From the IMG/VR virus record IMGVR_UViG_3300027969_000040: DNA of 64,000 nt; one strand, given 5' to 3'. Under the pieces are notes generated by a model. It worked only from the letters and a program-made list of their open reading frames with translations, made no database searches and had not been told where the DNA came from. The stretch comes from a virus. Lineage: Duplodnaviria > Caudoviricetes. Below are positions 17,031 through 48,264 of this stretch, in pieces. Every line of letters starts with the position of its first letter. The stretch's first letter is position 1. A program made the position numbers and the translations under genes.

Positions 17031-17033
17031 GAT

Positions 17034-17059
17034 AAAAAAGAGGCTTGCGCCCCTTTTTT
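17034..17059 (-). terminator. Intrinsic terminator after the MoxR gene
   Basis: AAAAAAGGGGC-GCAA-GCCTCTTTTTT hairpin with GNRA loop and U tract. Confidence 0.75.
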
Positions 17060-18158
17060 ATTTAACTGCGGCAACCACGTACTTACCAAAACGCTTATGG
17101 AACTCGTCAAAGTTCTTGATCTTGCCAGGCACAAACGGAATGCCGTATGTGGTAATAGCAATACGCGATGCCATAACTACTAATTCAGTAGTGAAATTAT
17201 CCATGATGAAGCGGAAGAAATTATCCGTCATCTTAATCCACTCTTCTGACTTTGGACCCAGTTTATCAAAAGAATCTTTGAGCTCATAGCATAAGCTGAT
17301 AGTCAAAGAGTACATAGCACTGATCTCTTTAATTTTGAGTTCGGTAATACGACCTTTCAACACTTCAACTGGGTCGGGCATCTGACCTGCTACTTTACGA
17401 TGAGCCATAAACTTAACTGCAAGCCCTTCGCCTACTGCACCAGAGATCAAGTCAACAGTGCCAGAGTCCATGCCATCATCATCGTCTAGAAGTTCGCTAA
17501 CAAAGACCCACGAACGTGGTGTAGCAAAGGACCGTGTACTAGAGCGTGGATCAAAGTCGAACAAGTCTTGTTTAGCAAAACTCAAGTAACCAACCACATC
17601 TTTATGGATCTTGTTGTTAACTGCCCATGTCTGCCAGGATTCAAAGTCTACTCGTAGTTCCATATGAATAAAACGATTGCTCAATGGACTAGGCATACGG
17701 AAAGTAACACCTTTGTCGCTTTCGCGATTACCAGCCGCAACCATAACAACATTCTTAGGCAATACATACTTGCCGATACGACGGTTTAGAATAAGTTGAT
17801 AAGCCGCTGCCTGCACACTTGGAGCCGCTGAGTTTAGCTCATCAAGGAACAGAACAATAATAGGATACTGACTGGCCATTTCTTCGTCGGGCAAATCGAT
17901 AGGAGGAGCCCAATCCATTTTACTTTTTTCTTTGTTGAAGAAAGGAATGCCGCGCAGGTCAGTTGGATCCATCTGGCTTAGACGCAGATCAATCATATGC
18001 CCGCCCAAGTCTTCAGTAATGCCAGCTACCAGCTCGCTCTTACCAATTCCCGGGGGACCCCAAAAGAACACAGGTCGTTGTTTCTTAAAACAACGCATGA
18101 GACCACGACGTGCCTCAACTGGAGTAACTGTACGTGCATCTGAAATCTGAGTAGCCAT
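17058..18158 (-). CDS. MoxR-like AAA+ ATPase
   Basis: Walker A GPPGIGKS, Walker B LFLDE, AAGN, sensor NRF and TPRSW; paired with the vWA gene. Confidence 0.9.
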   Translation of the reverse strand: MATQISDARTVTPVEARRGLMRCFKKQRPVFFWGPPGIGKSELVAGITEDLGGHMIDLRLSQMDPTDLRGIPFFNKEKSKMDWAPPIDLPDEEMASQYPIIVLFLDELNSAAPSVQAAAYQLILNRRIGKYVLPKNVVMVAAGNRESDKGVTFRMPSPLSNRFIHMELRVDFESWQTWAVNNKIHKDVVGYLSFAKQDLFDFDPRSSTRSFATPRSWVFVSELLDDDDGMDSGTVDLISGAVGEGLAVKFMAHRKVAGQMPDPVEVLKGRITELKIKEISAMYSLTISLCYELKDSFDKLGPKSEEWIKMTDNFFRFIMDNFTTELVVMASRIAITTYGIPFVPGKIKNFDEFHKRFGKYVVAAVK

Positions 18159-22586: not shown

Positions 22587-23036
22587 TCAACGGTACTCTG
22601 ATCGATTCGAGTCTAATTTTGTTTTATTTACATAACGTGTATCAGGATCTGCTTGTTCTTGCTCAAATGCTTCGGTTAATACATTTCGGCAAATTTCCTG
22701 GAACCACAAATCAACAATTTGTTGATCGGTCTTTCCTTTGTATCCTGCACGAACCAACTTGGCCAAGAAAATCTCATTCCAGTCTAGCTCGAATGCACCA
22801 TTGCCAACATTATCAGGATCAATTTCTACACCAATAACAGATACCCATGGTTCACCGGCAGCAGTAGCTTTATCTTTTTCTGACGTTACCGATACTGCTA
22901 CTACAGGCTCTTTAGGCTTGCTTTTACTACGGCGTGCTTTCGGTGCTTTGGGTTCTTCGGGGACTACAACCGGATTGGCCTCGGGCGGTGGCAGTATAGA
23001 TTCTTTTTTTCCAAATACTTTATCAAATAGTCCCAT
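22587..23036 (-). CDS. Conserved hypothetical phage protein
   Basis: 149 aa ORF; GAFELDWN...DLWF motif. Confidence 0.65.
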   Translation of the reverse strand: MGLFDKVFGKKESILPPPEANPVVVPEEPKAPKARRSKSKPKEPVVAVSVTSEKDKATAAGEPWVSVIGVEIDPDNVGNGAFELDWNEIFLAKLVRAGYKGKTDQQIVDLWFQEICRNVLTEAFEQEQADPDTRYVNKTKLDSNRSEYR

Positions 23037-23155
23037 GATTTTAAATCTTTCTTTATAGTTATTCTCTATCTACTCTAGCATCTTCGTTGGAACGATAGCA
23101 CATATATAATACGCCTACAATATAACCAAGAAAGAAACACAAAAAGTAATTCATG

Positions 23156-23353
23156 CTAGTTAATGCCAAACCGTTGTTTAATCATGCCAGCTGCTCCCAA
23201 ACTGGTCATTTGAGTAGTACTGCCTTTATCACATATATCAATGCACTCTAATAGGATTAGTTTTGCAAAACGCTCTTGTATATCCGGATTAATGTCAGGA
23301 TAAAAACTTCCACCGGCCATTAATTGTAAATTTTTAAGTAATTCTTTATTCAT
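23156..23353 (-). CDS. Hypothetical protein
   Basis: Starts right after the queE stop. Confidence 0.55.
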   Translation of the reverse strand: MNKELLKNLQLMAGGSFYPDINPDIQERFAKLILLECIDICDKGSTTQMTSLGAAGMIKQRFGIN

Positions 23354-23354
23354 A

Positions 23355-24221
23355 TTAAGTACCCCACTCATTTTTAAATAACGGTACTTGTAGCCTATCG
23401 CTGTACCGTAGTCCGTGTTTCATTGCCAACAATGCCACATTACGATTGTTTAATGCATACACACTTTCAACACCGCCCACTGGCATTAGATACACATGCC
23501 CTGTAAATCCTGCTGTACGATATTCAGCAATGGCACGTTCTGCATCTTCAAAATCTTCCTGTGTGGCAATAACAAACTTTAAATATGCTGTGCCGTATTC
23601 TTCATATTCACAAACTACTTCGGGTAGAATAGCTTCTTCCCACTTCTCACCACTACAAGGCAATTTGGCACTTACTGAGAAGGTAATCTCACGCCAAAAG
23701 TCTTGATCATGATGTGATTTCCATATGTGCAAATACAAAGCAAAGTCTAGAGCAAGTTTCTGAGTACCATTGGTTTCAAATGTAATTTCTTTCAAGCCGG
23801 CCATCTTGGGATGATTTAATAAATCTGGATAAGCACGTTGCCATCCCAGCAATGGTTCGCCTCCGGTGATAACCAAATGCTCATCGCGCCACTCACCATG
23901 CGGAAGTATTTCCATAATGCGTTCTACAATTGCATCTGTCGTTAACATTGGACTTAGATCTTTAAATGCTGGATCCCAACTAGCATAGCTATCGCAGCCT
24001 GTGCTTACTAACGGAAGCTCTTCGTACTTTTGAAAAGGGGTAACCAATGAATGTGTAGCTGCAATACCAGCAGCCTCCATACTTAATTCTCCGCGTGGCA
24101 TACCAAACCCTGCACATTTGAAATTACATCCAAATGTGCGTAAGAATACAGACGGTACACCCATGTAACGTCCTTCACCTTGTATGCTGTAGAACAGTTC
24201 TGCTATTTTAATTTTGCTCAT
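23355..24221 (-). CDS. queE: 7-carboxy-7-deazaguanine synthase (radical SAM)
   Basis: ELFYSIQGEG...PSVFLRTFGCNFKC...CDS, VITGGEPLL, ETNGT, SAKL, LKFVI, YLMP, RLQ. Confidence 0.9.
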   Translation of the reverse strand: MSKIKIAELFYSIQGEGRYMGVPSVFLRTFGCNFKCAGFGMPRGELSMEAAGIAATHSLVTPFQKYEELPLVSTGCDSYASWDPAFKDLSPMLTTDAIVERIMEILPHGEWRDEHLVITGGEPLLGWQRAYPDLLNHPKMAGLKEITFETNGTQKLALDFALYLHIWKSHHDQDFWREITFSVSAKLPCSGEKWEEAILPEVVCEYEEYGTAYLKFVIATQEDFEDAERAIAEYRTAGFTGHVYLMPVGGVESVYALNNRNVALLAMKHGLRYSDRLQVPLFKNEWGT

Positions 24222-24496
24222 AGTGGTATATAAATGTTAGACCATTTTTTAAGTTTTACAATCTTGGCTTTTTTTGCAATTTCTAAGTTGTCTATGGATA
24301 TTACACCCAATTCAAGCATGATGTCAATCATTGCGAGCATATCGCCCAATTCTTCTTCGAGATGTTCTCGATTAGTTTTAGGTTTACCCGGTTTTACATT
24401 ATCAGCACCAAATCGATTAATTTTGCTAACTGCTTGAATTACCTCTGCACATTCCTCTTGAAGAATGTCCATTACTTCTTTTTCTCTGGCGTTCAT
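24218..24496 (-). CDS. MazG-like NTP pyrophosphohydrolase
   Basis: LQEECAEVIQAVSK...LEEELGDMLAMI (EExxE...EExxD). Confidence 0.8.
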   Translation of the reverse strand: MNAREKEVMDILQEECAEVIQAVSKINRFGADNVKPGKPKTNREHLEEELGDMLAMIDIMLELGVISIDNLEIAKKAKIVKLKKWSNIYIPL

Positions 24497-24990
24497 TCAA
24501 ATAAATCCTCGTTCCATTCGCGATGACCTTCTCGATAAGCCATATTGGCCTGTGTTTCGCGTACTTCTACGCGATAGCACCATAGACGCTGACTTTCGCT
24601 TTCGCCCCAATAGTCAGGAATATAAACACCGTTTACATACTTGTAAAGCATATCTGCTAAACTTTCACACCCCATGGCTGGCAGGATAGTCAGTTTGGCC
24701 AACTTGCGGCGTTCCATTTCTTTGTAGAACTCAAGTTCTGGATCATCATGTGCCACCAGAGTTGTGTGATCAAATTGGTCTTCTAAGATCTTTTTAAGTT
24801 CTTTCAATCCGCCGTAGTCAGCGACCCAGTTGCGAACGTCTAGATCGTTGGTTCCAAAATAGAACTTCATACTAAACGAGTAACCGTGATTCATATTGCA
24901 ATGACTGTTGGCCCTCCATTGTCTATATGCGCAAGGAAATGCGTCGATATATTCTTTTGTACTAGTGTACTTGTATGCGATTGGGGTCAT
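24493..24990 (-). CDS. queD: 6-carboxy-5,6,7,8-tetrahydropterin synthase
   Basis: CxxxHGY-type HCNMNHGYS, WVADYG.LK, QFDHTTL, CESLA, VEVRET. Confidence 0.85.
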   Translation of the reverse strand: MTPIAYKYTSTKEYIDAFPCAYRQWRANSHCNMNHGYSFSMKFYFGTNDLDVRNWVADYGGLKELKKILEDQFDHTTLVAHDDPELEFYKEMERRKLAKLTILPAMGCESLADMLYKYVNGVYIPDYWGESESQRLWCYRVEVRETQANMAYREGHREWNEDLFE

Positions 24991-25000
24991 GCTGTTTCTC

Positions 25001-25062
25001 CTATGTTAATTATAGCATAGGCGGCGGAGTTTGTAAAGCGGGACGATGCCGATAGACCGCTA
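25001..25062 (-). promoter_or_regulatory. Structured 5' leader of queD (riboswitch/operator candidate)
   Basis: GC-rich AGCGG/CCGCT stem followed by a CCTATG/CATAGG hairpin that sequesters the AGGAG RBS. Confidence 0.4.
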
Positions 25063-25074
25063 TATGTACTTATC

Positions 25075-25518
25075 TTATTGTTCGGATACGTTTAGTATTT
25101 GAACTGCTGGTACATCATCTTCGAGAATATTACCATTTTCGTCTACTAGACAAATTCTAATTGGATTGCTAATACGCATATAAGAACTATCAATGCTCCA
25201 TTGATCTACAATTCCATCAATGCCATTTCTTCCCCAATTGATACCAATATTATTTACATCTTCATCAGTAAAGTCACCAAAAAATTTATAAAATGTTTGA
25301 AATTGATTTTTATATACGCCAGTTTCTAAAGGAAAATGCAAATTATCATCATTAATTTCTTGCTGTGTAATTGGATTATCTAAACTTCTGGTTCCGTATC
25401 CAGATACGAATGTATCTGTTACACTCCAACCTCGGTCGTTGTTTACTGACTTGATATTATAATATACACTTATACTACCGTCGTTATTTACTGGATACAC
25501 TCTGTATGAGTTTGTCAT
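25075..25518 (-). CDS. Hypothetical protein
   Basis: 147 aa AT-rich ORF; upstream TAAATA at 25548-25553. Confidence 0.55.
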   Translation of the reverse strand: MTNSYRVYPVNNDGSISVYYNIKSVNNDRGWSVTDTFVSGYGTRSLDNPITQQEINDDNLHFPLETGVYKNQFQTFYKFFGDFTDEDVNNIGINWGRNGIDGIVDQWSIDSSYMRISNPIRICLVDENGNILEDDVPAVQILNVSEQ

Positions 25519-25563
25519 GATTATTTTTCCTTGCTATATTTTTATTTTATTTAGTACTTGCAC

Positions 25564-26034
25564 TTATTCAAACTCGTCACTATCATAATAATCACTAATA
25601 CCATATTCCTCATCCAGTTCGGGGGGTATAGTATCAACTAACTCTTCTTTTGATAAATGACTGTAGTCGTATTGTTGATCGTCACCGTTATCCCAAATAC
25701 CACAAAATCCTATTCCTGGTTCGTAGTAAGTTGCATATACACTAAATCCTTGATCTAGTAATGATTTATACGCCATTAACGGTGGTGCCCATGCACTAGT
25801 AAAACTAAGTGTAATTTTATTTGGAGTCACTTCTAAGAAGCCGTCGTTTTCTCCAATGTCCCATTTAGTACCCCAGTTTTCAATATTCCATGTATACCAA
25901 TTTTCGTTATGTTCCGTTGGTCTTGGAACTAATGTGTTTAAAAATTCACCTTTGGCAAAGGCATTACCGGCACGTTCAATTACTTCTGGGTCGTTATGTT
26001 CTAAAATTAATTTGTTATCACACCAATTTGGCAC
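25564..26034 (-). CDS. DUF1281/Api92-like ferredoxin-fold protein
   Basis: MPNWCDN start, NWGTKWD, FTSAWAPP, YYEPG signatures. Confidence 0.75.
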   Translation of the reverse strand: MPNWCDNKLILEHNDPEVIERAGNAFAKGEFLNTLVPRPTEHNENWYTWNIENWGTKWDIGENDGFLEVTPNKITLSFTSAWAPPLMAYKSLLDQGFSVYATYYEPGIGFCGIWDNGDDQQYDYSHLSKEELVDTIPPELDEEYGISDYYDSDEFE

Positions 26035-26045
26035 AATGGTTCTCC

Positions 26046-26258
26046 TTAGGCAGCAGATTTTTTACGAGATGTCTTAACAGGGGCTTCTACACTTAGTATA
26101 GCAGCCTTTACTTCATTAAGCAAGGCTTCGTCGTCCCATTTTAATTCAGTACGCCCATTTGGAAAAGTTGTAACAGTTAAATGATTTCCTTTAACTATCT
26201 TTACTACATCCAACCCGGTAGCATTGACTACCTCAGATTTCTTTTTTTTAGTTGCCAT
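26046..26258 (-). CDS. Hypothetical protein
   Basis: 70 aa ORF; ELKWDDEAL motif. Confidence 0.55.
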   Translation of the reverse strand: MATKKKKSEVVNATGLDVVKIVKGNHLTVTTFPNGRTELKWDDEALLNEVKAAILSVEAPVKTSRKKSAA

Positions 26259-26664
26259 TTTGTGCTTCCTCTATTTCTTCAATTTTTAATAAATTATGAA
26301 ACCAATACTCTGACCGATCAAACACCCAACCAGAATCATCTAATGATTTATAAATGTCTATTCCAATTAAATTTTTAATTTTAGTTTGTTCCTCACTGCT
26401 GACTTGTGATGGAAACAACCAAGTTGCTGCTGATCCGCTAGCTTTAGGAACAAGCGTTAACAAACTCCAACTATATTCGGTACCTTTTGTTAATTCAATT
26501 CCGTCAATGTTTTCTAAATTCATATCAGGCATAGTATGGTTCCAGCATACAAATTCTGAATATTCAAATGTCTCACGCCGTGAAATAGTCAAACTGCCTT
26601 TATACCAATATTGCTGCTCAATTATTTTGTTTTTGTATTGAGGTGATATTTTCCATTTTTTCAT
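26248..26664 (-). CDS. Hypothetical protein
   Basis: 138 aa ORF, ATGA-coupled to folE. Confidence 0.6.
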   Translation of the reverse strand: MKKWKISPQYKNKIIEQQYWYKGSLTISRRETFEYSEFVCWNHTMPDMNLENIDGIELTKGTEYSWSLLTLVPKASGSAATWLFPSQVSSEEQTKIKNLIGIDIYKSLDDSGWVFDRSEYWFHNLLKIEEIEEAQNGN

Positions 26665-27371
26665 CGCGGCGCAAACTCCTGCTGTAGTTTGATGTTATCA
26701 AAAAACTCCTTCTTGGTGCTTTGATCTGTTTGAAATGCACCTCGAAGCACAGTAGTTTGAGTTAGACTGCTATGTGCCATGATACCACGATTCTCACAGC
26801 ATCCATGTGTAGCTTGGATATAAACACCTAGGTCTGTTGCTCCTGTAGCTTTTTGGATTTCTCTAGCAATGTCATTGGCCAGTTCTTCCTGCAAAGTACC
26901 ACGACGAGCGCACCAATGAGCAATACGAGTGTACTTAGACAAACCAATGAGCTTTTCTGCGGCGATAATCCCAATATAAGCGATACCAGATACAGGCTGG
27001 TGATGATGGCTACACATACTGCGTAGTTCACTTCTAACCACAAGCATGCCTTCGTATCTATCTGCTGAATCATTTGGAAAAGCCGTTGCATTCGGTGCTG
27101 GTTCATATCTACCTTCCATAATTTCATTAAAATACATTTTAGCTAATCGACGTGCAGTACCTTTACTATTAGGATCTGTTTCACGATCAATTAATAATCT
27201 ATCCAGTACAGTTTCAAATGCTAGTGTAGCTTCGTCAATTAAAATGTCTTTATCCAATCCGCTGATATATTCGCTAATATTATCGCCTGCCCAGAATCGT
27301 TTGTTATCGCGTTTCATCTTAGAGCGAATATGATCGCCGAGATAAATTTCTTTGTTGTCTGTTTCACTCAT
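26661..27371 (-). CDS. folE: GTP cyclohydrolase I
   Basis: TARRLAKMY, SMCSHH (Zn ligands), IGLSKYTRI, RRGTLQEEL, HGC, RG. Confidence 0.95.
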   Translation of the reverse strand: MSETDNKEIYLGDHIRSKMKRDNKRFWAGDNISEYISGLDKDILIDEATLAFETVLDRLLIDRETDPNSKGTARRLAKMYFNEIMEGRYEPAPNATAFPNDSADRYEGMLVVRSELRSMCSHHHQPVSGIAYIGIIAAEKLIGLSKYTRIAHWCARRGTLQEELANDIAREIQKATGATDLGVYIQATHGCCENRGIMAHSSLTQTTVLRGAFQTDQSTKKEFFDNIKLQQEFAPR

Positions 27372-27415
27372 TTTATTTTTTCTCCGATGTTAAGGCAGAG
27401 GATTGCCATGTTTGT

Positions 27416-27445
27416 ATTATATATTATTTAGACCAACAGAGTCAA
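27416..27445 (-). promoter_or_regulatory. sigma70-type promoter TTGACT-N18-TATAAT for folE
   Basis: Read directly on the minus strand. Confidence 0.6.
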
Positions 27446-27448
27446 TAA

Positions 27449-28417
27449 TTATGATAGGGTTTTTTGCCATTGCCATGCAGTGGCAACAATATTTTCAATG
27501 GTACTATTACGTGGTCGCCATGAGGTTAATGTTTTAAATTTTATACTTTCAGCTACAAGTTTATCTGGATCTCCCTCTCGACGAGGACCAATTTCTACAT
27601 CAATTTTTTCTCCGACTGTTTGACTACAGGCATTAATAATTTCTTTATTACTATACCCATGTCCGGTTCCTAAATTATATGCTTCGAATCTTCCAGGATT
27701 AAAACTTTCAGCTAAACATACAGATTCTAAATGTGCCTGCGCGATATCAGTTACATGCAAATAATCGCGTATGCAAGTGCCATCTGCGGTATCATAATCA
27801 TTTCCGTTTAATACAAATGATTTCTTATTTTGATATGCACCTAATATCCGAGGAATTATATGTGTTGCATCAATAGTATGACCTAATGCTCCACTGGCAT
27901 CTGCACCGCATGCATTAAAATAACGCAATGCAATGCCTTTATATCCATGTGCATTGCAATGATCTGCAATAACTTGTTCGCACATGAGTTTACTCCAACC
28001 ATATGGGTTCATTGGCTCTTGGTCCGACGACTCGCTAATAGGATTAGAGCAGTAATTACCGTATGTAGCGGCACTACTACTAAAAACAATTTTGCCGGGC
28101 CAACCATGCAATTGATCTAACAAAATGTTGGTTTTTGATACATTATTATTATAATATTCGCCGGGATTAGTCATGCTAGGGCCTACCAGGCTTGTACCAG
28201 CACAATGTATAATAGCATCGGCATTGTTTGTTTTTGCAGCAGTTGCAGCAACATCAGTGTAGTCGGCTATTAACATATTGTCTATGTAATGTGCAGCTTC
28301 TGGTATAGTTATAGTGCGGTCAACACCAATAACGTAGTACCCTGCTTCTTTAAAAGTCTTAGCAGTATGACTACCAATAAATCCAAATGCACCAGTAATT
28401 ACAACTCTTTTGCTCAT
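27449..28417 (-). CDS. galE: UDP-glucose 4-epimerase (extended SDR)
   Basis: GAFGFIGSH, FSSSAATYG, YGWSK (YxxxK), LRYFNACGA, IRDYLHVTD, YNLGTG, RREGDP. Confidence 0.92.
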   Translation of the reverse strand: MSKRVVITGAFGFIGSHTAKTFKEAGYYVIGVDRTITIPEAAHYIDNMLIADYTDVAATAAKTNNADAIIHCAGTSLVGPSMTNPGEYYNNNVSKTNILLDQLHGWPGKIVFSSSAATYGNYCSNPISESSDQEPMNPYGWSKLMCEQVIADHCNAHGYKGIALRYFNACGADASGALGHTIDATHIIPRILGAYQNKKSFVLNGNDYDTADGTCIRDYLHVTDIAQAHLESVCLAESFNPGRFEAYNLGTGHGYSNKEIINACSQTVGEKIDVEIGPRREGDPDKLVAESIKFKTLTSWRPRNSTIENIVATAWQWQKTLS

Positions 28418-28418
28418 A

Positions 28419-29597
28419 TCAATATTTTGTTTCGTGTGTATGCTTACGATAGTCGGTACTCATGCGCAACCACTTGTTACCTTTGCCTTCTAGTATATCA
28501 CATATGCGATCAATAGTACCGTCATTCCAATCACTAATCAATCCCTGACTTACATGATGATATCCTAGCAAATCTTCTAGCTTGGCAATAGCATCGTCGA
28601 GACTCCAAGGTATATACATTCGAGTATAGTCGTTAGCAAAGGTCTCAGGGAAACTGCGATAAGCAGGGTAAAGTACATTACAACCAAGAGTGTCCGCTTC
28701 TGATACAGTGTTTGAGACCCAATCTTGTAAAGCGCAATTAAAAAGCACACGAGTGTCATTAAGGAGACTGTAGTAGTCATTCTTTTCCAAGTCCTCATAG
28801 ATAGTAAGCATACCACGTGCTTGTAGATCGCGTGTACGTGCCATGTAGCTGTCGTTATTGCTCTTTAATTTTGCACCACTAAAGATACAAAACTCTACTG
28901 GATGATTTGGATATTGAGTATGCCATGATTCGATGAGATCCATGTAGAAGTCTGGCTGCTTCTCTTGATCCCAACGTGCAGCAAAGCCCACACGCATAGC
29001 ACGATCACCAAATTCTTTTAACTCGCCAGGTACACGAGCACGTACTTCGTCCTTGCCAAATGCTAGGCCTGAAATATTGTAGATTGGTGCCTGCCAACCT
29101 GCAATCTTCATGTGCATTACCATTTCTTCATTAGTTGCGAGTACTCCGTCCACAAACGAGTCCACCATTTTTTCATAATGAGCCATCCAAGTTGACATAC
29201 CCCACACATGTACAAAATCATCAGGATCAATAGACTGGGCAAGACAACGAACAAAAATACGAGGACGGTGGTTAGCAGGGATTTGATTGAGGATATAAGG
29301 AAGGCTCTCCATACCGGGCTGAAACATGTCCTCAAAATAGACCACATCTTCATTGTTTAATTCTCCTGCTTTCATCATCTTAATCAGATTCATTAACTGA
29401 CTCATACCAAAGTATGTGCGTCCGTGTGCATCTAATACTTGTCCGGTTACAATTGCTTGGTCATTACTGAGTGTTTCGCCGGGTACTATAACATAGTCAA
29501 TGCCGCGTTGTTCGAACACAGCACGATTCCACTCTTGTAGTTGCAAAGTATATCTTGCTTTATAAGGTTCAAGACCCATGTAGTAGAGTTTACGCAT
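28419..29597 (-). CDS. GT-B fold glycosyltransferase (GT4-like)
   Basis: Start MRKLYYMG at 29597; FAARWDQEK, ALQDWVSNTVSEADTLGCNVLYP (E-x7-E-like sugar-nucleotide motif). Confidence 0.75.
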   Translation of the reverse strand: MRKLYYMGLEPYKARYTLQLQEWNRAVFEQRGIDYVIVPGETLSNDQAIVTGQVLDAHGRTYFGMSQLMNLIKMMKAGELNNEDVVYFEDMFQPGMESLPYILNQIPANHRPRIFVRCLAQSIDPDDFVHVWGMSTWMAHYEKMVDSFVDGVLATNEEMVMHMKIAGWQAPIYNISGLAFGKDEVRARVPGELKEFGDRAMRVGFAARWDQEKQPDFYMDLIESWHTQYPNHPVEFCIFSGAKLKSNNDSYMARTRDLQARGMLTIYEDLEKNDYYSLLNDTRVLFNCALQDWVSNTVSEADTLGCNVLYPAYRSFPETFANDYTRMYIPWSLDDAIAKLEDLLGYHHVSQGLISDWNDGTIDRICDILEGKGNKWLRMSTDYRKHTHETKY

Positions 29598-29608
29598 GAT
29601 ATTCCTTA

Positions 29609-29851
29609 TTAACGAGCATCGTTTCCATAACGACGTCCTTGACGTATCATCCATCCCCAGTTGTCACGAGGCCAGCGTCCATTCTGGAAACGTAGATAGT
29701 CTCCAAATGGGCTATACTCATTACCCAGATGGGCTTCGTTAAACGGAAAACCATAATCCGCACAAAATTTGCGATACTTATCGAGGTCGTCAAAAATACG
29801 ACTCACTTCTGGTTTCATGACAAAATATTTTTTAAGTTGATGATTAGACAT
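29609..29851 (-). CDS. Conserved hypothetical protein
   Basis: Start MSNHQL with AAGGA RBS. Confidence 0.6.
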   Translation of the reverse strand: MSNHQLKKYFVMKPEVSRIFDDLDKYRKFCADYGFPFNEAHLGNEYSPFGDYLRFQNGRWPRDNWGWMIRQGRRYGNDAR

Positions 29852-29871
29852 AATATAATCCTTTAATAAAG

Positions 29872-30321
29872 TTAAACAGAAATTTGTTTGGCACTGTAGC
29901 GATGGTAAAAAATATTGCAACCGTTCTCTCCATCTTCGGAGACTTCAATTTCTATATCTCTATCTGGGTATCGAGTAGCAATAACTTGATATAGTTCATC
30001 ACTAATCATTTCGCAGCTTTTATGATCTAGTTGTAGTGAATCTTTGTACAAGTTTTCAATCCAACGTTTAAATTGAATAAATTCAATATCACGATCGGCA
30101 TGAAATACTTGGATAGAAACTTTAAAGTGAAATATATGACGATGCGGAAATCCTAGGAAACTCACATCATATTCATCACCGGTTGCCAATGTTGGATCGG
30201 TTGCTGCTGCTGGATACATATGGATACCTTCTTTACGGAAGGTGATCCAAATTAATCTCTTTGCTCGGTCGGCGATACGATTTCTTTTTTCTGCTAGTGC
30301 AGTTTCGGTTTGTGTAAACAT
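29872..30321 (-). CDS. dpdL: QueD-paralog T-fold protein, DpdL-like (putative CDG decarboxylase)
   Basis: LGFPHRHIF matches the LxxxHRHxF signature; DIEFI.FK, SCEMIS, VSEDGENG T-fold motifs; lies in the deazaguanine locus. Confidence 0.6.
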   Translation of the reverse strand: MFTQTETALAEKRNRIADRAKRLIWITFRKEGIHMYPAAATDPTLATGDEYDVSFLGFPHRHIFHFKVSIQVFHADRDIEFIQFKRWIENLYKDSLQLDHKSCEMISDELYQVIATRYPDRDIEIEVSEDGENGCNIFYHRYSAKQISV

Positions 30322-30353
30322 CTTTATTAAATAAAGTTAGTTGATAGATATGC

Positions 30354-30382
30354 AGTATACACTGCGGCGATAACAAAGTCAA
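30354..30382 (-). promoter_or_regulatory. sigma70-type promoter TTGACT-N17-TATACT upstream of the dpdL-like gene
   Basis: Read directly on the minus strand. Confidence 0.7.
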
Positions 30383-30392
30383 CGACTTTGAA

Positions 30393-30899
30393 TTATAATA
30401 CAGAGTCTTTGGTGTATTCCCGCCAGCTGGTAAAGTTAGCAGGGTTGGTTAAAGAGTGTAGGCTGTGACACCATACACCGGGATTAGTGGCATCAAAATC
30501 TTTGTCATCAATTTTGACAGTGGCATTATATCCCAGCTGTTGCAAGTAGGGTATCTTAACCGATATCATTGGGATAAAGTTGTGATACTCAGTAAGGCCG
30601 CACTCTAGTAGGCCTTCTACAGATCGAACATCAATATCCAATGAGCATAAGTAACCTGCTCTCAGGAACGGTGTAATCATATCTTGCCACTGGTCCCAGG
30701 TGCCGGCATCGTTAACATCGGGATTGGGAAAACTCATGTTAGCACCAAAGTAAATATGCTCACATCCGTTAATGTGTTGGGCAATATCATCTTCGGTTTG
30801 TACTCCGACTACAAACAGGGTTTTCTTGCCGTACGCAGGAGTACGCTCAATTTCAATGCCGTAGAAGAAACTTACTTCTTCGTGACCTTCTCTAATCAT
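30393..30899 (-). CDS. Conserved hypothetical protein coupled to dpdA
   Basis: 168 aa ORF, ATGA overlap with the dpdA stop; GIEIERTPAYGKKTLFVVG, HIYFGAN, NPGVWCH motifs. Confidence 0.65.
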   Translation of the reverse strand: MIREGHEEVSFFYGIEIERTPAYGKKTLFVVGVQTEDDIAQHINGCEHIYFGANMSFPNPDVNDAGTWDQWQDMITPFLRAGYLCSLDIDVRSVEGLLECGLTEYHNFIPMISVKIPYLQQLGYNATVKIDDKDFDATNPGVWCHSLHSLTNPANFTSWREYTKDSVL

Positions 30900-32527
30900 G
30901 ATACTTCCTTTTCTTCAAACAAATCATTAAACTTTGTGCGACCGTTAAGGGCCTTCTTACCGATGAATCCACGACCGCCAATAATATCCATCCAATAGTT
31001 ACGGTAGTGTTGTATAATAGCTTCTGATTCTTCTCTAACATCCGTAGCAAAGATAGCATCTACTATGTCTTTGAACATTTCATAATCGCCATTGTTTTTA
31101 CGCATCATACCAGGATACTCGCCTGCATCGTATGTTCTATTAGCACGTTGTACAGCTTCGATATGTGTCCATACGTTATGACCCATTAGTAGTGCATAAC
31201 TAAAACTATCCCAGCTAGTTTTGCCTTCTTTGCCATTTTTATTTACATCACCCGGCTTATAGTAACAGATGTCTTTCATTTTAAGCAGGCTACTGATAGG
31301 GCTTTCGTCAAAGTGGTTGACCCACTTTTCTTGTACAGCAGTAACACCATAGGGTCTTAGATCAGTTGCATACTTCTTATCATCTACAATAGGACTCATA
31401 CGATAACACCATTTACCTTCGTGCGGCAAATCAATCTCATGATATACTTGTCCATTGGCAGTAGCTAAGAATGGGCTGGCGCAATCAAAGCTGATAGTAA
31501 AGGCTGGATTGACGTACTTTCTGACAGCTCTTTGTATGTCAGTTAACAATACTGCCCACTCTAATTTGCTAGTACCCAAGAAGTGCATCCAATCATGTAC
31601 ACCTTCTTGCAGCAAGTTGTCGTGGCGTAATGCTATTAATCTTTTTAGTATAAGATGCACATCACACATATTCTGTCCGCCCATTGCCCAACCATCAAAG
31701 TGTTTATCTGGATAGACTGTGGGATCACAAAATACTTTCATAGCCTGATACCAATCCTCGGCACTGGTATGATTATCACCTTGCAATACATTTAAGTATT
31801 TTGCACCACCGTTGTTCTTGCCACGGCGATGACGCATAAAGTATTCGTTATTGTATTTTGTTGCAGCAACCGCCTCTGGCAAGGTAGTAATACCGCAGGC
31901 ATTGCTGGCTTTCTTGTCATGAATAACCCAAGTTGGGATATCCAAGATCATTCCATAATCGGAAATACTGTCTAACCAAGTAAGCACGCCGCCGCGTTTC
32001 TTTTGTGCTGCATCAATTTTATCTTGATACAGTTTGGCGTGATTGATGTTAACAGTCTTTGGTACACCTTTTTTCATTACAGGATTGCCAGCTTTGTCTA
32101 GTACAGGGCGCACTTCGATGCCCAGTGCCTGCATAGCTGCCATTTTCTGTGTAACTTCTGGGCCATTAGGGTCACGCCACTCGCCTTCCCACAAGCCCTT
32201 GGCAATCTGAAATCCGCCCGAATCACCTAACATAAAAGTGCCAGGCTTGCGATTACGAACCATGTCCTCACTGGCGTCTGGTTTATTCAGATCCAAATTA
32301 GCATGACCTGCACTATACAAACTCCACCGATAAGGAAACAAACCCTTCTGGTCATCTAACCAATTCATCTGCTCCATGTCTGTCAGACCTTGGGGAAAAC
32401 GTGCAGGGTCTACGTAGTCATTATTGACACGTTGCTTTCCCACAAAAGTAGCATAGAAACCTGATATAGCTGGTAAGAATACAGCATAATCGTTTTGTTT
32501 TGCGGTTAAATTATCCTGCGACATCAT
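30896..32527 (-). CDS. dpdA: tRNA-guanine transglycosylase-like DNA base-exchange enzyme (DpdA family)
   Basis: TGT barrel motifs GDSGGFQ, LD.P, LNVLQG, DGWAMGG, HFLG, SFD in register; located with folE/queD/queE. Confidence 0.75.
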   Translation of the reverse strand: MMSQDNLTAKQNDYAVFLPAISGFYATFVGKQRVNNDYVDPARFPQGLTDMEQMNWLDDQKGLFPYRWSLYSAGHANLDLNKPDASEDMVRNRKPGTFMLGDSGGFQIAKGLWEGEWRDPNGPEVTQKMAAMQALGIEVRPVLDKAGNPVMKKGVPKTVNINHAKLYQDKIDAAQKKRGGVLTWLDSISDYGMILDIPTWVIHDKKASNACGITTLPEAVAATKYNNEYFMRHRRGKNNGGAKYLNVLQGDNHTSAEDWYQAMKVFCDPTVYPDKHFDGWAMGGQNMCDVHLILKRLIALRHDNLLQEGVHDWMHFLGTSKLEWAVLLTDIQRAVRKYVNPAFTISFDCASPFLATANGQVYHEIDLPHEGKWCYRMSPIVDDKKYATDLRPYGVTAVQEKWVNHFDESPISSLLKMKDICYYKPGDVNKNGKEGKTSWDSFSYALLMGHNVWTHIEAVQRANRTYDAGEYPGMMRKNNGDYEMFKDIVDAIFATDVREESEAIIQHYRNYWMDIIGGRGFIGKKALNGRTKFNDLFEEKEVS

Positions 32528-32876
32528 AATCTCTTGTTAATGCCAATAGCAAATCTAATTTACTTTTAGCTTGTTCCACTTCTTCGATGGCACCTACTAG
32601 CTGTGGATACTGATCTTTAAGCAATTCTATATCACGTTCTTGCTGCATCTTGTACTGGGCCCACTCTATAGCCTCTTGTGCTTGATTACCAAGTCCCACG
32701 GTGGCATAGCTGGTGTTCATGACAATCCAATTTGCGCCATTAAACACCTCCATGTTTGTACCGTTAATACGAAGCATACCTTGTGCGGGATTACTTGAAT
32801 TGGTACTAATATAAGGCACAGAGGTATCACCCCCTGTAACTATTACATGCTTCTCACCCATGAGACCTTTTATCAT
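32511..32876 (-). CDS. Conserved hypothetical protein
   Basis: 121 aa ORF, ATGA-coupled to the clamp gene. Confidence 0.6.
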   Translation of the reverse strand: MIKGLMGEKHVIVTGGDTSVPYISTNSSNPAQGMLRINGTNMEVFNGANWIVMNTSYATVGLGNQAQEAIEWAQYKMQQERDIELLKDQYPQLVGAIEEVEQAKSKLDLLLALTRDYDVAG

Positions 32877-33604
32877 TTTGTCATTGCGGGTATAGTATAA
32901 TTATAAACAGCAATGCCAGAATCGACTGTGATCTGTGCTGCACCTTCATCGCTAAAACGCATAGTTTTATCGCCCGGCAAACCTAAAATGTTTTTAACAA
33001 CATTAACAGGCCATGGCCAACCTCTTGTTAAATTGCCTGAGATATTAGTTTCAAATACAAAGCTACCTGCATGGGTACTGTTGTCACCAAAATAGAATTT
33101 AAGATCCTTACCTTCTACTTTAGCAATAAATGTTGTTTCTTCGCTATTAGCCTGGCTTTGAAATACAAATCGTTGTATACCTAACACAGTAGGAGCAACA
33201 TCGACACCCCATTTAACATCTTTAAATTTCATTGTTTTGATCTTGTCGTTAACAATAGATGCACCCATAAAGCGATAGTCGTTTTTAAAGTCTCCTACTT
33301 TATTTTCAAAGTGGATGCCAGATGGTACTGCGGCACCATTAACAGTTTGTCTGCTAATACTAATTTGTGCATCTTCCTTGTATTCGGGAATATTTAAAAT
33401 AGTGTTTAGTTTGCCCAAGTTAGGCATTCCAAACTGTCCAATGAACTCTGCCACTGGACCATGAAAGGTAGCATCAAGAATAACACTTTTGTCTTCTGCA
33501 ATAGCGTTAACAAGAGTTTCTTCTTCTGTACCTGTAATTTTAATTAAGTCAATCACACCCAGGTTGTGTGTGTGCTTGACCATATCTAATAGTGCGTCTT
33601 TCAT
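32873..33604 (-). CDS. DNA polymerase sliding clamp (gp45/PCNA-like)
   Basis: 243 aa with two-fold beta/alpha pattern (FGMPNLGKL, DFKNDYRFM), next to the DNA polymerase; a clamp loader is present at 59861. Confidence 0.65.
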   Translation of the reverse strand: MKDALLDMVKHTHNLGVIDLIKITGTEEETLVNAIAEDKSVILDATFHGPVAEFIGQFGMPNLGKLNTILNIPEYKEDAQISISRQTVNGAAVPSGIHFENKVGDFKNDYRFMGASIVNDKIKTMKFKDVKWGVDVAPTVLGIQRFVFQSQANSEETTFIAKVEGKDLKFYFGDNSTHAGSFVFETNISGNLTRGWPWPVNVVKNILGLPGDKTMRFSDEGAAQITVDSGIAVYNYTIPAMTK

Positions 33605-33670
33605 AGTGGTTCCTTATAATAGTTGATATAATACATGATATATTTAGATTTTGCAAACGTTTCGATGAAA

Positions 33671-36331
33671 TTATTCGAACGTGAATAATTGATCAAATGT
33701 AGTTTTTGTTCCGGTATTGTCTCTAATGTCCCAATCCAGAACTCCTAATAAGTTATCAACCTTTTGGTCAACAATAGTTGCTTCCATTAGGTCGTTATCA
33801 AATGGTAAGTCTTTAAACCATTGTGGTATGTGAGTTTCGTCAGTTGGATAGCCAACAGATGTAAATCCTAATGGATTTGCTTTTAGTTTACAAACAATAG
33901 TTTTCATTCCGTCGATTATGCTCATACTGCGATTGTCGCTATTCATACGCCTCAACGAATTCCAATTGATTGCTGCACGAACATGCCCTGGCATATTAGA
34001 TCTACCTTTACGTTCTTCAAGTTCGGCAAACTTAGTTAAGTTGTTTACACGTTTAGGTGTACCTTTCTCCCAGGCTGGCCGCTCTTGAAAACTCAATTTA
34101 AAAGTTAACACACGTTGGTAGATTTCTTTCTTCTCGGCACCTGTTAGTACTGCTAATAATAGTTCACTTAAAAAGTCTTGTACAACCTTAGGAGTATCAC
34201 TACGCTTTAAGTCCAACCCCATTGCCTTTACCTTGCCTAACTTACCATTGACATTCTGTTTGTTTCCTTCAAGGTCGACAATAAGAACTGCATAGCGTTT
34301 CTTTTTAATAAACAACCCTTTACTAGCTACTAGCTCTCGGCCGCCAACAATAATACTGCCCATTTCTCTTGGACAATGGAATGCTCTTTCCATGAACCCC
34401 GGGAAACTGGTATTAACTTGATTGGCGATGTTATCGTACAGCTCGATGCACATTTCTTCAGTCCACTTCATATTACCAGCAGCAACGTCATCCTTGATAA
34501 CTGGCCACGCTGAGAAATAAACTGAGTCTGTGTCACCGTAAATAATAGAGTCACCTGTATGATCGTACTTGCCTGTTATGCATTCATTGGTATGTGCATC
34601 CATATGTCTAGCAATAACACGCCCAGTTAAGGTGGTCGATTGGCCAATTCGCTTATCAAAAAACCTACAGCCAGGATTAAGAATAGCACCGTACAAGCTG
34701 TTGAGATTAATCTTTTTAACCAGCTGACGTTTGTCCCAGAATGCTTTATCTTCATTTGTTTTAGCTTCCTTCTTCTTAGCCTGAAGTTCTTTACGCTCTG
34801 CATACCAACGTTCCAGTAATCCGGGCACAATACCTTTAGCATCGTACTTAAAGATAGTACCATTGGCACTAAGTATCCAAGGTTGATTGCCTTCGAATAC
34901 TAAACGCCAAACATCAGCGGCAGACATAGTATCATTACCGCCGCCCTCCCAGTCAATGGTTATGTCTGTGCCAGGCTCCATATTCATTACACTGGTATAT
35001 TCTAAGCTACCAAACAAGTTTTCCCAGGCGTCTGCAAAACTTGAACCTGCATCCATCTTTTCTTTTATGTATTGATCGGTCCTTGTTTGTCTGAGCTGTC
35101 CGACAATAGTCTCACATGCCATGTTGAGGGCACGAATAGCCGAGGGATAGAGCGAGTTGATGTCGATTGCTCCAATCCATTCGTGCATACCCTTTTTGGG
35201 GTAAGCAACGTAGGCACCTGCTGCTTGCGTTTCACCTTGTTCATCTTGATTACTCCTATTTTGAACTATTAAACCTTGACGATGTGCTTCATTAATAATG
35301 GCTTGTTCGGTAACAGCCACAGCCCCCATAGTAGTAGGAAGCAATACAGTATTGTCGTGTGCCAATTCGTTGGCAAGATCAATAAAGCGAAGTTTCTTAT
35401 CCAACTTGGCCAACAACATGGTGTCTTGCCTGTTGTAGTCAATAAATTTAGGAAAATCTTTATTGTATAATTGATCCAATGTACCTTCGTACTGGAGTTT
35501 GCGTTCTTCAAGTTCGTACTCGCCGATAGCATCTAAGCTGTAGCTATGACGTTCTTCATATGTGTATTTGCGATACAGTTGCATATAGTCCATATGCACA
35601 CGACCAATCAAGTCGAATGTGATGTTTTCAGCACCAAAACGTTCAAAGGTTCTCTTTTTAGGAAATTGATTCCATAAGCAATAACGACGGGTATCGTCTT
35701 TGCTGAGTACTTTGATAGTACGCATTACCATATACGGAACGTCAAAGCCCTCTGAGTTCCACCCGCTTAGTATGTCTGCATCCTCAATGAGGTCAAGGAA
35801 TGTTTTAATCATATCATCTTCGCGAGCAAAGATAAAACAATTATCAAACTGACTGGCTACTTCTTGTGCAGTATCCCAGCTATAGCTTTTTGGTGGTACT
35901 GCTAGTGTAATCAATTTATCAAGCCAAGACAAGTAAACTGAAATTGCAGTAATGGGATTAAATGGATCTTCGGGTCTGCTGTACCCGCGCACAGGATCAA
36001 AGTCCACCTCAATATCAAAAAAGCAAATGTTCAAATTAGGTGCATCCTTACCTAAATAGTTTTCTTCTAAACATCTTACCAATGGTTTAATGTCAGATTC
36101 CCACAGTTTATTTTTTGGATGTATTTTAATTTCTTTATAGAACTCTTTGCCGTTACGAGTACTAAACCTGCTGACAGGCGTACCGTATATGGTTGTAAAT
36201 TTACCTCTAGGGTCGTCGTAGTAGAATAGATAGTTAGCAGGATATTCTTGATATACCCTGCGACCTTCTACTCGTTCTACTACATGAATCCTGTCGTTCT
36301 CTTTATCAAAAAGTGCGTCAACATAACTCAT
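33671..36331 (-). CDS. polB: Family B DNA polymerase with 3'-5' exonuclease
   Basis: FDIE, SGWNSEGFD, YNRQD exonuclease motifs; DINSLYPS, KINLNSLYG, YGDTDS and KKRY polymerase motifs. Confidence 0.97.
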   Translation of the reverse strand: MSYVDALFDKENDRIHVVERVEGRRVYQEYPANYLFYYDDPRGKFTTIYGTPVSRFSTRNGKEFYKEIKIHPKNKLWESDIKPLVRCLEENYLGKDAPNLNICFFDIEVDFDPVRGYSRPEDPFNPITAISVYLSWLDKLITLAVPPKSYSWDTAQEVASQFDNCFIFAREDDMIKTFLDLIEDADILSGWNSEGFDVPYMVMRTIKVLSKDDTRRYCLWNQFPKKRTFERFGAENITFDLIGRVHMDYMQLYRKYTYEERHSYSLDAIGEYELEERKLQYEGTLDQLYNKDFPKFIDYNRQDTMLLAKLDKKLRFIDLANELAHDNTVLLPTTMGAVAVTEQAIINEAHRQGLIVQNRSNQDEQGETQAAGAYVAYPKKGMHEWIGAIDINSLYPSAIRALNMACETIVGQLRQTRTDQYIKEKMDAGSSFADAWENLFGSLEYTSVMNMEPGTDITIDWEGGGNDTMSAADVWRLVFEGNQPWILSANGTIFKYDAKGIVPGLLERWYAERKELQAKKKEAKTNEDKAFWDKRQLVKKINLNSLYGAILNPGCRFFDKRIGQSTTLTGRVIARHMDAHTNECITGKYDHTGDSIIYGDTDSVYFSAWPVIKDDVAAGNMKWTEEMCIELYDNIANQVNTSFPGFMERAFHCPREMGSIIVGGRELVASKGLFIKKKRYAVLIVDLEGNKQNVNGKLGKVKAMGLDLKRSDTPKVVQDFLSELLLAVLTGAEKKEIYQRVLTFKLSFQERPAWEKGTPKRVNNLTKFAELEERKGRSNMPGHVRAAINWNSLRRMNSDNRSMSIIDGMKTIVCKLKANPLGFTSVGYPTDETHIPQWFKDLPFDNDLMEATIVDQKVDNLLGVLDWDIRDNTGTKTTFDQLFTFE

Positions 36332-36618
36332 TGTGTAAGCATCCTTGTTAATCCTATACTATCAATTGTAATCAGCAGTGAGTAGTTTGCCAGCATGCCA
36401 AAAGATCTACGGCTATAACTAGCCCACCCATACATACAACACTGAATAATAAAAACAGGATAAATGTAAATAAGAGGCGGATTGGGTACTGTGAGTGCCA
36501 TAGTGATACTGCATCCAATTGAAATAACCCAAGCCGCAGCTTCAACGATAAAACGAACAGGGTTAGTTTTATAGTCGTTTTTGATCCACGTAAAAACATT
36601 ACGGATACTGTCGTTCAA
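36328..36618 (-). CDS. Small membrane protein
   Basis: Three hydrophobic segments. Confidence 0.6.
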   Translation of the reverse strand: MNDSIRNVFTWIKNDYKTNPVRFIVEAAAWVISIGCSITMALTVPNPPLIYIYPVFIIQCCMYGWASYSRRSFGMLANYSLLITIDSIGLTRMLTQ

Positions 36619-36878
36619 AGTGTCTTGCCTACAGTTTCCAATATAGTATTTAGATCGTCGTGATCGCGATTGGTCTCGCCTAGTTTACTCTTGCTGGCTA
36701 TCTTAATTGCTTTTTTAAGAATAGCAGGCTTAACTTCAAGTTCTTCAGCAATTGCTTTGATGGTTTCGTTGAGCCCTGTGCTTAGTGCTTCAACTTCGGC
36801 CATTACTTGCATGCCTTCATTGATAATTTGTGTTAGTTTAATTTTTTGATCGCCGCTAAACATACGTGATGATGACAT
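36615..36878 (-). CDS. dsDNA-binding protein (T4 DsbA / GapR-like)
   Basis: KLTQIINEG...IKAIAEELEVKPAILKKAIKI helical pattern. Confidence 0.6.
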   Translation of the reverse strand: MSSSRMFSGDQKIKLTQIINEGMQVMAEVEALSTGLNETIKAIAEELEVKPAILKKAIKIASKSKLGETNRDHDDLNTILETVGKTL

Positions 36879-36906
36879 AAAGATCCTTTATAGTGAATTA
36901 TAGTTA

Positions 36907-36935
36907 ATTATAGATTACTTATTTCACAAAAGCAA
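36907..36935 (-). promoter_or_regulatory. sigma70-type promoter TTGCTT-N17-TATAAT for the replication operon
   Basis: Read directly on the minus strand. Confidence 0.6.
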
Positions 36936-36945
36936 GTGTTTAGAT

Positions 36946-37050
36946 AAAAAAAGTGCTCACTTTCGAGATTCCCGGTAGCGAATCGGGCCGTCCCGCGCCA
37001 GCAGCCGGCGCACACTTAATATAACGCAAAGGTCCTAAGATAGTGTGTTC
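36946..37050. ncRNA. GC-rich structured intergenic element (unidentified ncRNA candidate)
   Basis: Stems CCCG/CGGG, GCGCC/GGCGC and ACAC/GTGT, possible pseudoknot pairings and an adjacent terminator-like hairpin; no ORF. Confidence 0.4.
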
Positions 37051-37053
37051 GTA

Positions 37054-37449
37054 TTAACCGTTAATGTAATTTGGATATGCTTTATTAAACTTACGCATAA
37101 TAATGCCAGCTACGCTATTAGCTTCGTTTTCTTCATTGCTACCAGTTTCGCCACTGTTAGCATTGAGTTGATTTTCTTGATGTTGTTTAAAATGAACAAG
37201 TTCGTGTGCCAGTGTTCTACAAATATCAATTGGATGTCTGCGATCTATACCCAAACTAATGGTCATATCTGATGGGGAAAAACTACCAAATGTAGGCTGC
37301 TCTTGTTGATTCATTGATTTGAAAATGTTAATTTCGGGTAAGTTAGTTAGTCCTAGTTCTTCCATGGCCAATGGAAGTAAATCCTTTATTGCACTGTATA
37401 CAACTTGGTAGGATTCCTTTGATTCAACTAGGAATTCAACAGCTCTCAT
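37054..37449 (-). CDS. Zincin-like metallopeptidase domain protein, probably virion core
   Basis: MRAVEFLVE start; RTLAHELVHFKQ (HExxH) with downstream ENEAN third ligand. Confidence 0.7.
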   Translation of the reverse strand: MRAVEFLVESKESYQVVYSAIKDLLPLAMEELGLTNLPEINIFKSMNQQEQPTFGSFSPSDMTISLGIDRRHPIDICRTLAHELVHFKQHQENQLNANSGETGSNEENEANSVAGIIMRKFNKAYPNYING

Positions 37450-48254: not shown

Positions 48255-48264
48255 TACAGTTCCT

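Follow-up and report, generated by a model that had tools for sequence, protein, structure and literature searches.

A phage 7-deazaguanine locus with a linked glycosyltransferase predicts a sugar-bearing purine in DNA

The stretch of viral DNA studied here, 64,000 nucleotides of the IMG/VR record IMGVR_UViG_3300027969_000040 (Caudoviricetes) and referred to as the window, carries a locus for 7-deazaguanine DNA modification in which a glycosyltransferase (GT) with a GT-B fold is embedded. The gene content and its conservation among relatives suggest a DpdL-type deazaguanine system with a dedicated GT, and predict a sugar-bearing purine in DNA. In the reading that we favour, at slightly better than even chances, the phage would exchange the guanine of its DNA for 7-deazaguanine and, most likely, go on to attach a hexose to this base. 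All genes named in the original prediction for this locus were found on the minus strand, and their positions agree, exactly or nearly, with those expected (Table 1). The tight packing noted there was also observed, as the GT gene abuts galE, but stop and start are separated by 1 nt and not by 2 nt. An open reading frame (ORF) for an 80-aa protein between dpdL and the GT gene had been omitted.

FolE, QueD, QueE and a DpdA-like protein are all encoded in the window, which is the gene set expected alongside DpdL. QueD shares 49% identity with QueD of phage ACP17, and QueE 47% with the protein annotated as QueE in Synechococcus phage BUCT-ZZ01; QueE models of NCBIfam match the window protein with scores below their cut-offs. 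The QueD paralogue of the locus carries LGFPHRHIF (at 30156, minus strand) and thereby the motif LxxxHRHxF instead of the CxxxHGH motif of QueD. This signature defines DpdL, the proposed decarboxylase of 7-carboxy-7-deazaguanine (CDG) (Cui et al. 2023, PMC10516641). The protein is 57% identical to ACP17 DpdL (E 8e-41) and 37% identical to DpdL of phage phiST (E 3e-13); Pfam and NCBIfam searches gave no match. Cui et al. proposed that DpdL converts CDG to 7-deazaguanine, and found phiST DNA to be 100% 2′-deoxy-7-deazaguanine (dDG). Reconstitution of dDG from ACP17 or phiST genes failed, and the authors suspected missing enzymes (PMC10516641). The absence of queC, which had been pointed out before, held as far as the scan reached: QueC was not found among the about 39 window ORFs scanned, which cover part of the window, and none was found above the family cut-off in five whole related contigs, two of them 92-100% complete. 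The same scan matched 14 of 14 control genomes, 12 of them above the cut-off. Without QueC the pathway should therefore end at CDG or 7-deazaguanine and cannot reach preQ0.

The association of the GT with these genes was followed through its relatives. The order PolB-clamp-DpdA-(u168)-DpdL-80aa-GT is kept in 80 IMG/VR loci whose GTs are 75-97% identical to that of the window, and DpdL is found in 79 of 82 close related loci. At 31-38% identity of the GT, DpdL lies directly beside it in 13 of 13 loci (12 from IMG/VR and one Logan contig), in both orders and with FolE or QueE next to the pair. Four more distant GT representatives have the same DpdL and FolE-QueE neighbourhood, and a gene with the LxxxHRHxF motif stands by the GT in all 17 distant loci. 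Clustering of the ORFs from 24 non-redundant GT loci, which include GTs only 30-38% identical, placed DpdL in 24, QueE in 20, FolE in 19 and QueD in 15 of them; a GT without DpdL was never seen in this set. Gene order varies between DpdL-GT, GT-DpdL and DpdA-GT-DpdL, and the adjacency of GT and DpdL is therefore not a matter of simple inheritance. Moreover, the linkage spans unrelated backbones, namely PolB jumbo phages, T4-like phages and PolA phages. The neighbourhood check suggested earlier thus came out in favour of the proposal: in each of the lineages examined, dpdL, dpdA, folE and queE accompany the GT homologues, and the view that the GT belongs functionally to the deazaguanine locus is borne out down to about 30% identity and through rearrangements of gene order.

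The dependence is one-sided. No member of this GT family was found anywhere in the records of the DpdL-carrying phages phiST, RHph_I1_18, Ahp1, Bakedbeans, D479 and MA9V-3, in a search that detected the GT in four positive controls. Since the GT needs DpdL, DpdL does not need the GT, and phiST DNA is 100% dDG, the simplest explanation is that the GT acts downstream of DpdL, with 7-deazaguanine as its substrate. Close relatives carry further genes at this place, namely a radical-SAM gene between dpdA and the u168 gene, a B12-binding radical-SAM gene, a SPASM radical-SAM gene, an FkbM methyltransferase, and extra short-chain dehydrogenase/reductase (SDR), epimerase or dehydratase genes after the GT. 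These inserts give a pattern of diversifying hypermodification and not of a housekeeping glycan pathway, and the base that is made probably varies from one relative to another.

Six groups of cultured phages in GenBank have the GT next to DpdL or DpdA. They are represented by PA5oct, ACP17, X1 (a Xanthomonas phage), BCSR5 (Burkholderia), Phosso (Sinorhizobium) and BUCT-ZZ01. The GT of the PA5oct group is EST35_0317 (hhalign E 5e-24), in ACP17 the GT lies between dpdA and dpdL, and BUDD, a relative of X1, carries DpdL. X1 (L087:7837-9449) and BCSR5 (L090:13267-15105) have three more genes in common immediately before the GT, for a PP-loop protein resembling phosphoadenosine phosphosulfate (PAPS) reductase (42% identity) and two unassigned proteins, which have no counterparts in the window. 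A phosphoribosyltransferase-like gene is found in the clusters of both PA5oct (L003:10175-10609) and BUCT-ZZ01 (L001:5093-5554; annotated as xanthine-guanine phosphoribosyltransferase; 27% identity, E 2e-10), and no homologue was seen in the window locus. These genes hint that some of the phages might also make a deazaguanine nucleotide.

The likely start of the GT is 29597 (M20), given that its homologues have 392 aa and begin at this methionine. Its AlphaFold2 (AF2) model has a mean confidence (pLDDT) of 94.8 and shows the two Rossmann domains of a GT-B fold, with MshA, BshA, SenB, PimA and glycogen synthase, as well as LmbT, among the best structural matches. The family comprises 801 clusters at 50% identity, and 44 of 60 members match PF00534 (Glycos_transf_1; best E 4.5e-10). 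The family alignment shows no variation at R208 and K213 and hardly any at D292 and E300; the window protein holds them in the motifs RWDQEKQP and QDWVSNTVSE. The spacing R208-x4-K213 and D292-x7-E300 is that of the donor-binding and EX7E motifs of GT4 enzymes, a correspondence of spacing and not of superposed structures. Against PDB sequences, phmmer gave no match and a profile search weak GT matches only. Two proteins of relatives may be mentioned here. P0158 (L093:1888-3855) is a 655-aa family member adjoining a DpdL gene on a short contig; its about 290 extra C-terminal residues have no Pfam match and form no recognisable extra domain. A search of viral contigs with P0232 as the query gave no match. 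In BUCT-ZZ01, a 447-aa hypothetical protein after folE (L001:6968-8350) is a second, weak match to the GT profile (E 3.9e-5) and may be a second GT-B enzyme.

The gene next to the GT encodes a GalE that is clear from its Pfam match. The protein scores above the TIGR01179 equivalog cut-off (309.1 versus 262.3 bits), and its closest relatives in the PDB are all UDP-glucose/UDP-galactose 4-epimerases, led by a UDP-glucose 4-epimerase (E 3e-69). Among relatives, galE adjoins the GT in only one sublineage; in the other, a protein 28-30% identical to GalE is encoded about 7 kb away. Galactose is therefore a plausible donor sugar for the window phage, as had been proposed, but its use is not a feature of the system as a whole. 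In PA5oct, EST35_0320 (L003:9645-10163; 172 aa), just after dpdL, shares 33% identity with the first 117 residues of the window GalE; it may be a truncated Rossmann/SDR remnant or a small NAD-binding protein within the module.

The candidate insertion enzyme is the 543-aa DpdA-like protein. In its AF2 model (pLDDT 90.1) the fold is that of tRNA-guanine transglycosylase (TGT): all 50 best PDB matches are to this enzyme (Z. mobilis TGT), with a best E of 2.7e-8. D102 in GDSGGFQ and D348 in FDCASP (SFDCASPF) are invariant in 28 DpdA-like sequences. Presumably these correspond to the catalytic-aspartate motifs of Z. mobilis TGT (D102 in DSGGFQ and D280 in FDCV), matched here by likeness of the motifs and without superposition at residue level. 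By sequence, no Pfam match was found even at E 10, TGT (PF01702) and DpdA (PF23859) included, none was found in NCBIfam, and neither phmmer nor the family profile matched any PDB sequence. Language-model likeness was 0.92 to TGT clusters and 0.87 to DpdA clusters. The protein groups with PA5oct EST35_0316, which is its closest cultured homologue (32% identity), and with proteins of Phosso and Vibrio phage 2.275.O. It is remote from ACP17 DpdA (hhalign probability 42%) and not detectably like phiST DpdA3 (0.6%), and we therefore place it in a subfamily of its own. From fold and catalytic motifs we infer that it swaps guanine in DNA for a deazaguanine. In this context, a preprint describes PA5oct DNA as resistant to enzymes whose sites contain G and concludes that the G is modified, without giving its chemistry.

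Two small proteins complete the set. A u168 homologue is encoded directly upstream of dpdA in ACP17 (31% identity) and in 38 related loci, and the 80-aa ORF stands at the same position in 73 of 82 related loci; both are conserved parts of the module. No match to u168 came up in Pfam, NCBIfam or PHROGs or in a profile search of the PDB, and in feature space it resembles GH18-like clusters no more than expected by chance (at most 0.83). The 80-aa ORF has no family match in Pfam or NCBIfam.

Put together, these genes suggest the following pathway. FolE, QueD and QueE would make CDG from GTP, which is established chemistry for these families, and DpdL would convert CDG to 7-deazaguanine, in line with the DNA of phiST. 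The TGT-fold DpdA-like enzyme would exchange this base for guanine in DNA. The GT4-like GT would move a sugar from a nucleoside diphosphate sugar to the deazaguanine, a step proposed from gene linkage only, and the donor in the window phage would probably be UDP-galactose from the adjacent GalE. Candidate acceptor atoms are C7, which faces the major groove, or N2 as in huimycin. Going by the binding of preQ1 and queuine to TGT, insertion of this type should tolerate bulk at C7 rather than at N2. Glycosylation could precede insertion and act on the free base, or follow it and act on the DNA, and of these two routes we consider the second somewhat the more probable. The acidic GT, its structural matches and its lack of closeness to T4-type DNA alpha-GTs lean towards a small-molecule acceptor and thus the free base. 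Two other acceptors were considered and set aside. A sugar ester on the carboxyl group of CDG, which the original prediction had offered as one option, is unlikely, as the GT depends on DpdL and DpdL is proposed to remove just this carboxyl group. T4-like glucosylation of hydroxymethylcytosine (hmC) was also rejected: no hydroxymethylase was found among the scanned ORFs, and the GT shows no special structural likeness to the T4 enzymes.

Several points weigh against a sugar on the base. First, 7-deazaguanine offers neither a hydroxyl nor any other classical acceptor group. Attachment of a sugar would call for an N- or C-glycosidic bond, and to our knowledge no GT4-type retaining enzyme makes a C-glycosidic link to a nucleobase. 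Second, the GT itself matches PF00534 at E 0.086 only (12.8 bits, cut-off 26.4), it is acidic (isoelectric point (pI) 5.1; family median 5.7), its best structural matches (MshA, BshA, SenB and LmbT) act on small molecules and not on DNA, and in the ranking of its viral structural matches T4-type DNA alpha-GTs appear only at places 28 and 49. Third, GalE is not a constant partner of the GT and is elsewhere absent or replaced by other sugar enzymes. Finally, the activity of DpdL has never been reconstituted (PMC10516641).

An alternative is that the GT is a helper in the synthesis or insertion of plain 7-deazaguanine, with no sugar on the final base. It could act by way of a transient glycosyl intermediate, or by binding to DpdL or DpdA as a structural partner. 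The position of the GT between dpdA and dpdL in ACP17 fits such a role, as does the observation that GT-bearing phages use DpdA types other than phiST DpdA3. However, reconstitution failed for phiST as well, a phage that makes 100% dDG without a GT, and the conserved donor-binding residues together with the recurrence of GalE and other SDRs beside the GT point to real sugar consumption. We therefore regard a helper role as unlikely, yet not as negligible. It is less probable still, and in our view rather doubtful, that the GT acts on another base, on a phage or host protein or on a host surface glycan and merely travels along in a shared early or anti-defence block. The acidic character of the GT, the mostly non-nucleic-acid acceptors of GT4 enzymes and the many host- or virion-glycosylating phage GTs among its structural neighbours would agree with a target of this kind. 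Against it stand the adjacency to DpdL, which survives about 30% identity, rearrangements and unrelated phage backbones, and the family's never being away from DpdL in the 24 non-redundant loci; in addition, no dCMP or dUMP hydroxymethylase but only ThyX was found in the about 39 scanned ORFs. Highly improbable is a soluble, huimycin-like glycosylated 7-deazapurine that acts on the host outside DNA: huimycin and dapiramicin are indeed glycosylated 7-deazaguanine free bases made by a GT from a UDP-sugar, and the best structural matches use small-molecule acceptors, but a TGT-fold DpdA-like gene with intact catalytic motifs lies in the block beside PolB and the clamp, PA5oct DNA is resistant at G-containing restriction sites, and known natural-product clusters have no nucleic-acid insertion enzyme.

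With glycosylation of 7-deazaguanine kept as the preferred reading, we give even chances to its extension, in which PA5oct, ACP17, X1, BCSR5, Phosso, BUCT-ZZ01 and an abundant uncultured jumbo lineage would carry N- or C-linked glycosylated 7-deazaguanine, elaborated in relatives by radical-SAM, methyltransferase and sugar-tailoring enzymes. As had been stated before, no described glycosylated 7-deazaguanine in DNA was found, in full-text literature up to November 2026. All phage DNA sugar decorations known to us are on pyrimidines, namely glucosyl- and arabinosyl-hmC, base J and sugar-modified thymidines, and a glycosylated purine would be, as far as we know, a new class of natural DNA base. 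If correct, this would be the first sugar-bearing purine in any genome and would imply glycosyltransferase chemistry on a base without a hydroxyl group. It could also explain why dDG pathways resisted reconstitution, and would name the G modification of the therapeutic jumbo phage PA5oct. As the GT family is large and common in environmental phages, the base would be widespread. Such a base would be relevant to restriction, to type IV defence, to the sequencing of these phages and to enzymes for site-specific DNA tagging. Because six cultured phage groups carry the module, the prediction is testable now.

The features of the locus are listed in Table 1. All genes run on the minus strand, from 36331 down to 23355. 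The window has about 38% GC and belongs to a large phage genome; the largest of the related IMG/VR contigs measure 328-352 kb, with completeness rated at 92-100%. A megablast search of GenBank phages with the whole locus gave no match, and nothing close was found at DNA level. PolB at the head of the block is 44-47% identical to the split PolB of PA5oct. The clamp-like protein, which had no match in Pfam, is kept in 69 of 82 related loci, and family searches with the 121-aa ORF next to it gave no match. The four small ORFs between folE and queD show patchy conservation among relatives, and the 156-aa one matches phrog_20518, to which no function is assigned. Promoter-like sites precede dpdL, folE and queD, the one before queD being strong. 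For this reason, dpdL, the 80-aa ORF, the GT gene and galE may be a single transcription unit headed by a promoter-like site of its own. Rfam gave no match on either strand of the region 23000-37300 at E 1, including the leader before queD (24991-25074); a known preQ1-type riboswitch is therefore unsupported.

Table 1. Features of the deazaguanine locus in window coordinates; coordinates with an L prefix belong to related loci
Feature	Position	Strand	Evidence or remark
PolB, family B DNA polymerase, head of the co-oriented block	33671..36331	-	PF00136 E 1.1e-33; PF03104 E 6.6e-18
Clamp-like protein, 243 aa	32873..33604	-	Clusters with annotated sliding clamp of Phosso and PA5oct EST35_0314
121-aa ORF between clamp and dpdA	32511..32876	-	Present in 31 related loci
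DpdA-like protein, 543 aa, TGT fold, candidate DNA-guanine transglycosylase	30896..32527	-	AF2 model, motifs
u168, conserved protein, 168 aa	30393..30899	-	Start overlaps dpdA stop by 4 nt
Promoter-like site upstream of dpdL	30354..30382	-	TTGACT-17-TATACT, 10/12, consensus match only
DpdL, QueD paralogue, proposed CDG decarboxylase, 149 aa	29872..30321	-	LGFPHRHIF; phrog_17812 E 7.9e-35
80-aa basic ORF between dpdL and GT	29609..29851	-	pI 9.4
GT4-like GT-B glycosyltransferase, 392 aa from M20	28419..29597 (ORF to 29654)	-	AF2 fold
GalE, UDP-glucose 4-epimerase	27449..28417	-	TIGR01179 309.1 bits
Promoter-like site upstream of folE	27416..27445	-	TTGACT-18-TATAAT, 11/12, consensus match only
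FolE, GTP cyclohydrolase I	26661..27371	-	PF01227 E 1.2e-38
Four small ORFs (138, 70, 156, 147 aa) between folE and queD	25075..26664	-	No Pfam match
Promoter-like site upstream of queD	25009..25037	-	TTTACA-17-TATAAT and upstream TG, 11/12, consensus match only
QueD, 6-carboxytetrahydropterin synthase	24493..24990	-	PF01242 E 2.9e-15
MazG-like pyrophosphohydrolase	24218..24496	-	PF03819 E 9.5e-7; overlaps both neighbours
QueE, 7-carboxy-7-deazaguanine synthase	23355..24221	-	Radical_SAM E 4.9e-6 (weak)
Inserts between dpdA, dpdL and GT in close relatives	L006:6956-8092, L030:3675-5276, L030:6128-7342, L019:7299-8486, L031:6374-7423

Elsewhere in the window, tail-fibre-like proteins, ThyX, a ClpB-like ATPase, DnaJ and a clamp-loader ATPase are encoded. 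The ClpB-like double AAA+ ATPase (767 aa) adjoins the DnaJ homologue (283 aa) at 45951-49116, forming a phage chaperone pair. At 15720-18158 a MoxR-like AAA ATPase (366 aa) adjoins a DUF2201 metallopeptidase/VWA protein (419 aa). A 532-aa protein at 42697-44295 has an N-terminal cytidylyl/adenylyltransferase domain with weak likeness to nicotinamide mononucleotide (NMN) adenylyltransferase and may act in NAD salvage.

Among known systems, the dDG system of phiST (PMC10516641) shares FolE, QueD, QueE, MazG, DpdL with LxxxHRHxF, a TGT-fold transglycosylase and the lack of QueC with the window locus, and both loci adjoin replication genes. In phiST, mazG lies next to dpdL. The phiST system differs in having neither GT nor GalE and in carrying an ATPase-like gene in place of u168; its DpdA3 has 259 aa and gives no significant profile match to the 543-aa protein of the window. 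The alpha- and beta-glucosyltransferases of T4, to which the original prediction had compared the GT, are likewise phage GT-B enzymes that use a UDP-sugar in a DNA base-modification pathway, presumably against restriction. This analogy holds for the fold but not for the acceptor. In T4 the acceptor is the hydroxymethyl group provided by dCMP hydroxymethylase, and the scanned window ORFs give no sign of such a group or enzyme; models of T4-type DNA alpha-GTs are no closer to the window GT than generic GT4 enzymes.

On the side of the acceptor, HuiG of the huimycin pathway, with a related case in the dapiramicin pathway, transfers a sugar from a UDP-sugar to a 7-deazaguanine scaffold that derives from FolE, QueD and QueE. 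The huimycin sugar is on the exocyclic N2. That pathway differs in belonging to a bacterial secondary-metabolite cluster, in using QueC (preQ0 scaffold) and O6-methylation, and in having no DNA insertion enzyme. Huimycin and dapiramicin are the only chemical precedent found for a glycosylated 7-deazaguanine. In animal tRNA, QTMAN (GTDC1) and QTGAL add a sugar to a 7-deazaguanine derivative, queuosine, that is already in the nucleic acid. QTMAN is a GT4-type GT-B enzyme. The acceptor of QTMAN and QTGAL is, however, the cyclopentenediol hydroxyl, which the pathway of the window cannot make. The QTMAN_N domain (PF12038) was found in none of 60 GT family members at E 0.1, and the 30 best structural matches of the GT in Swiss-Prot do not include QTMAN.

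On the side of the fold, the retaining GT4 enzymes MshA, BshA and PimA are the best matches (E down to 1e-12, TM-score 0.6-0.68). They share with the window GT the positions and spacing of an Arg, a Lys and two acidic residues of the C-terminal domain, at an identity of only 9-15%. The first acidic residue is Asp in the window GT and Glu in the GT4 enzymes. The N-terminal acceptor domain of the window GT has a conserved set of its own, consisting of E10, Y12, R15, Y16, T17, W23, D56, R60, Q67, D90, D124, D127, W137 and E142.

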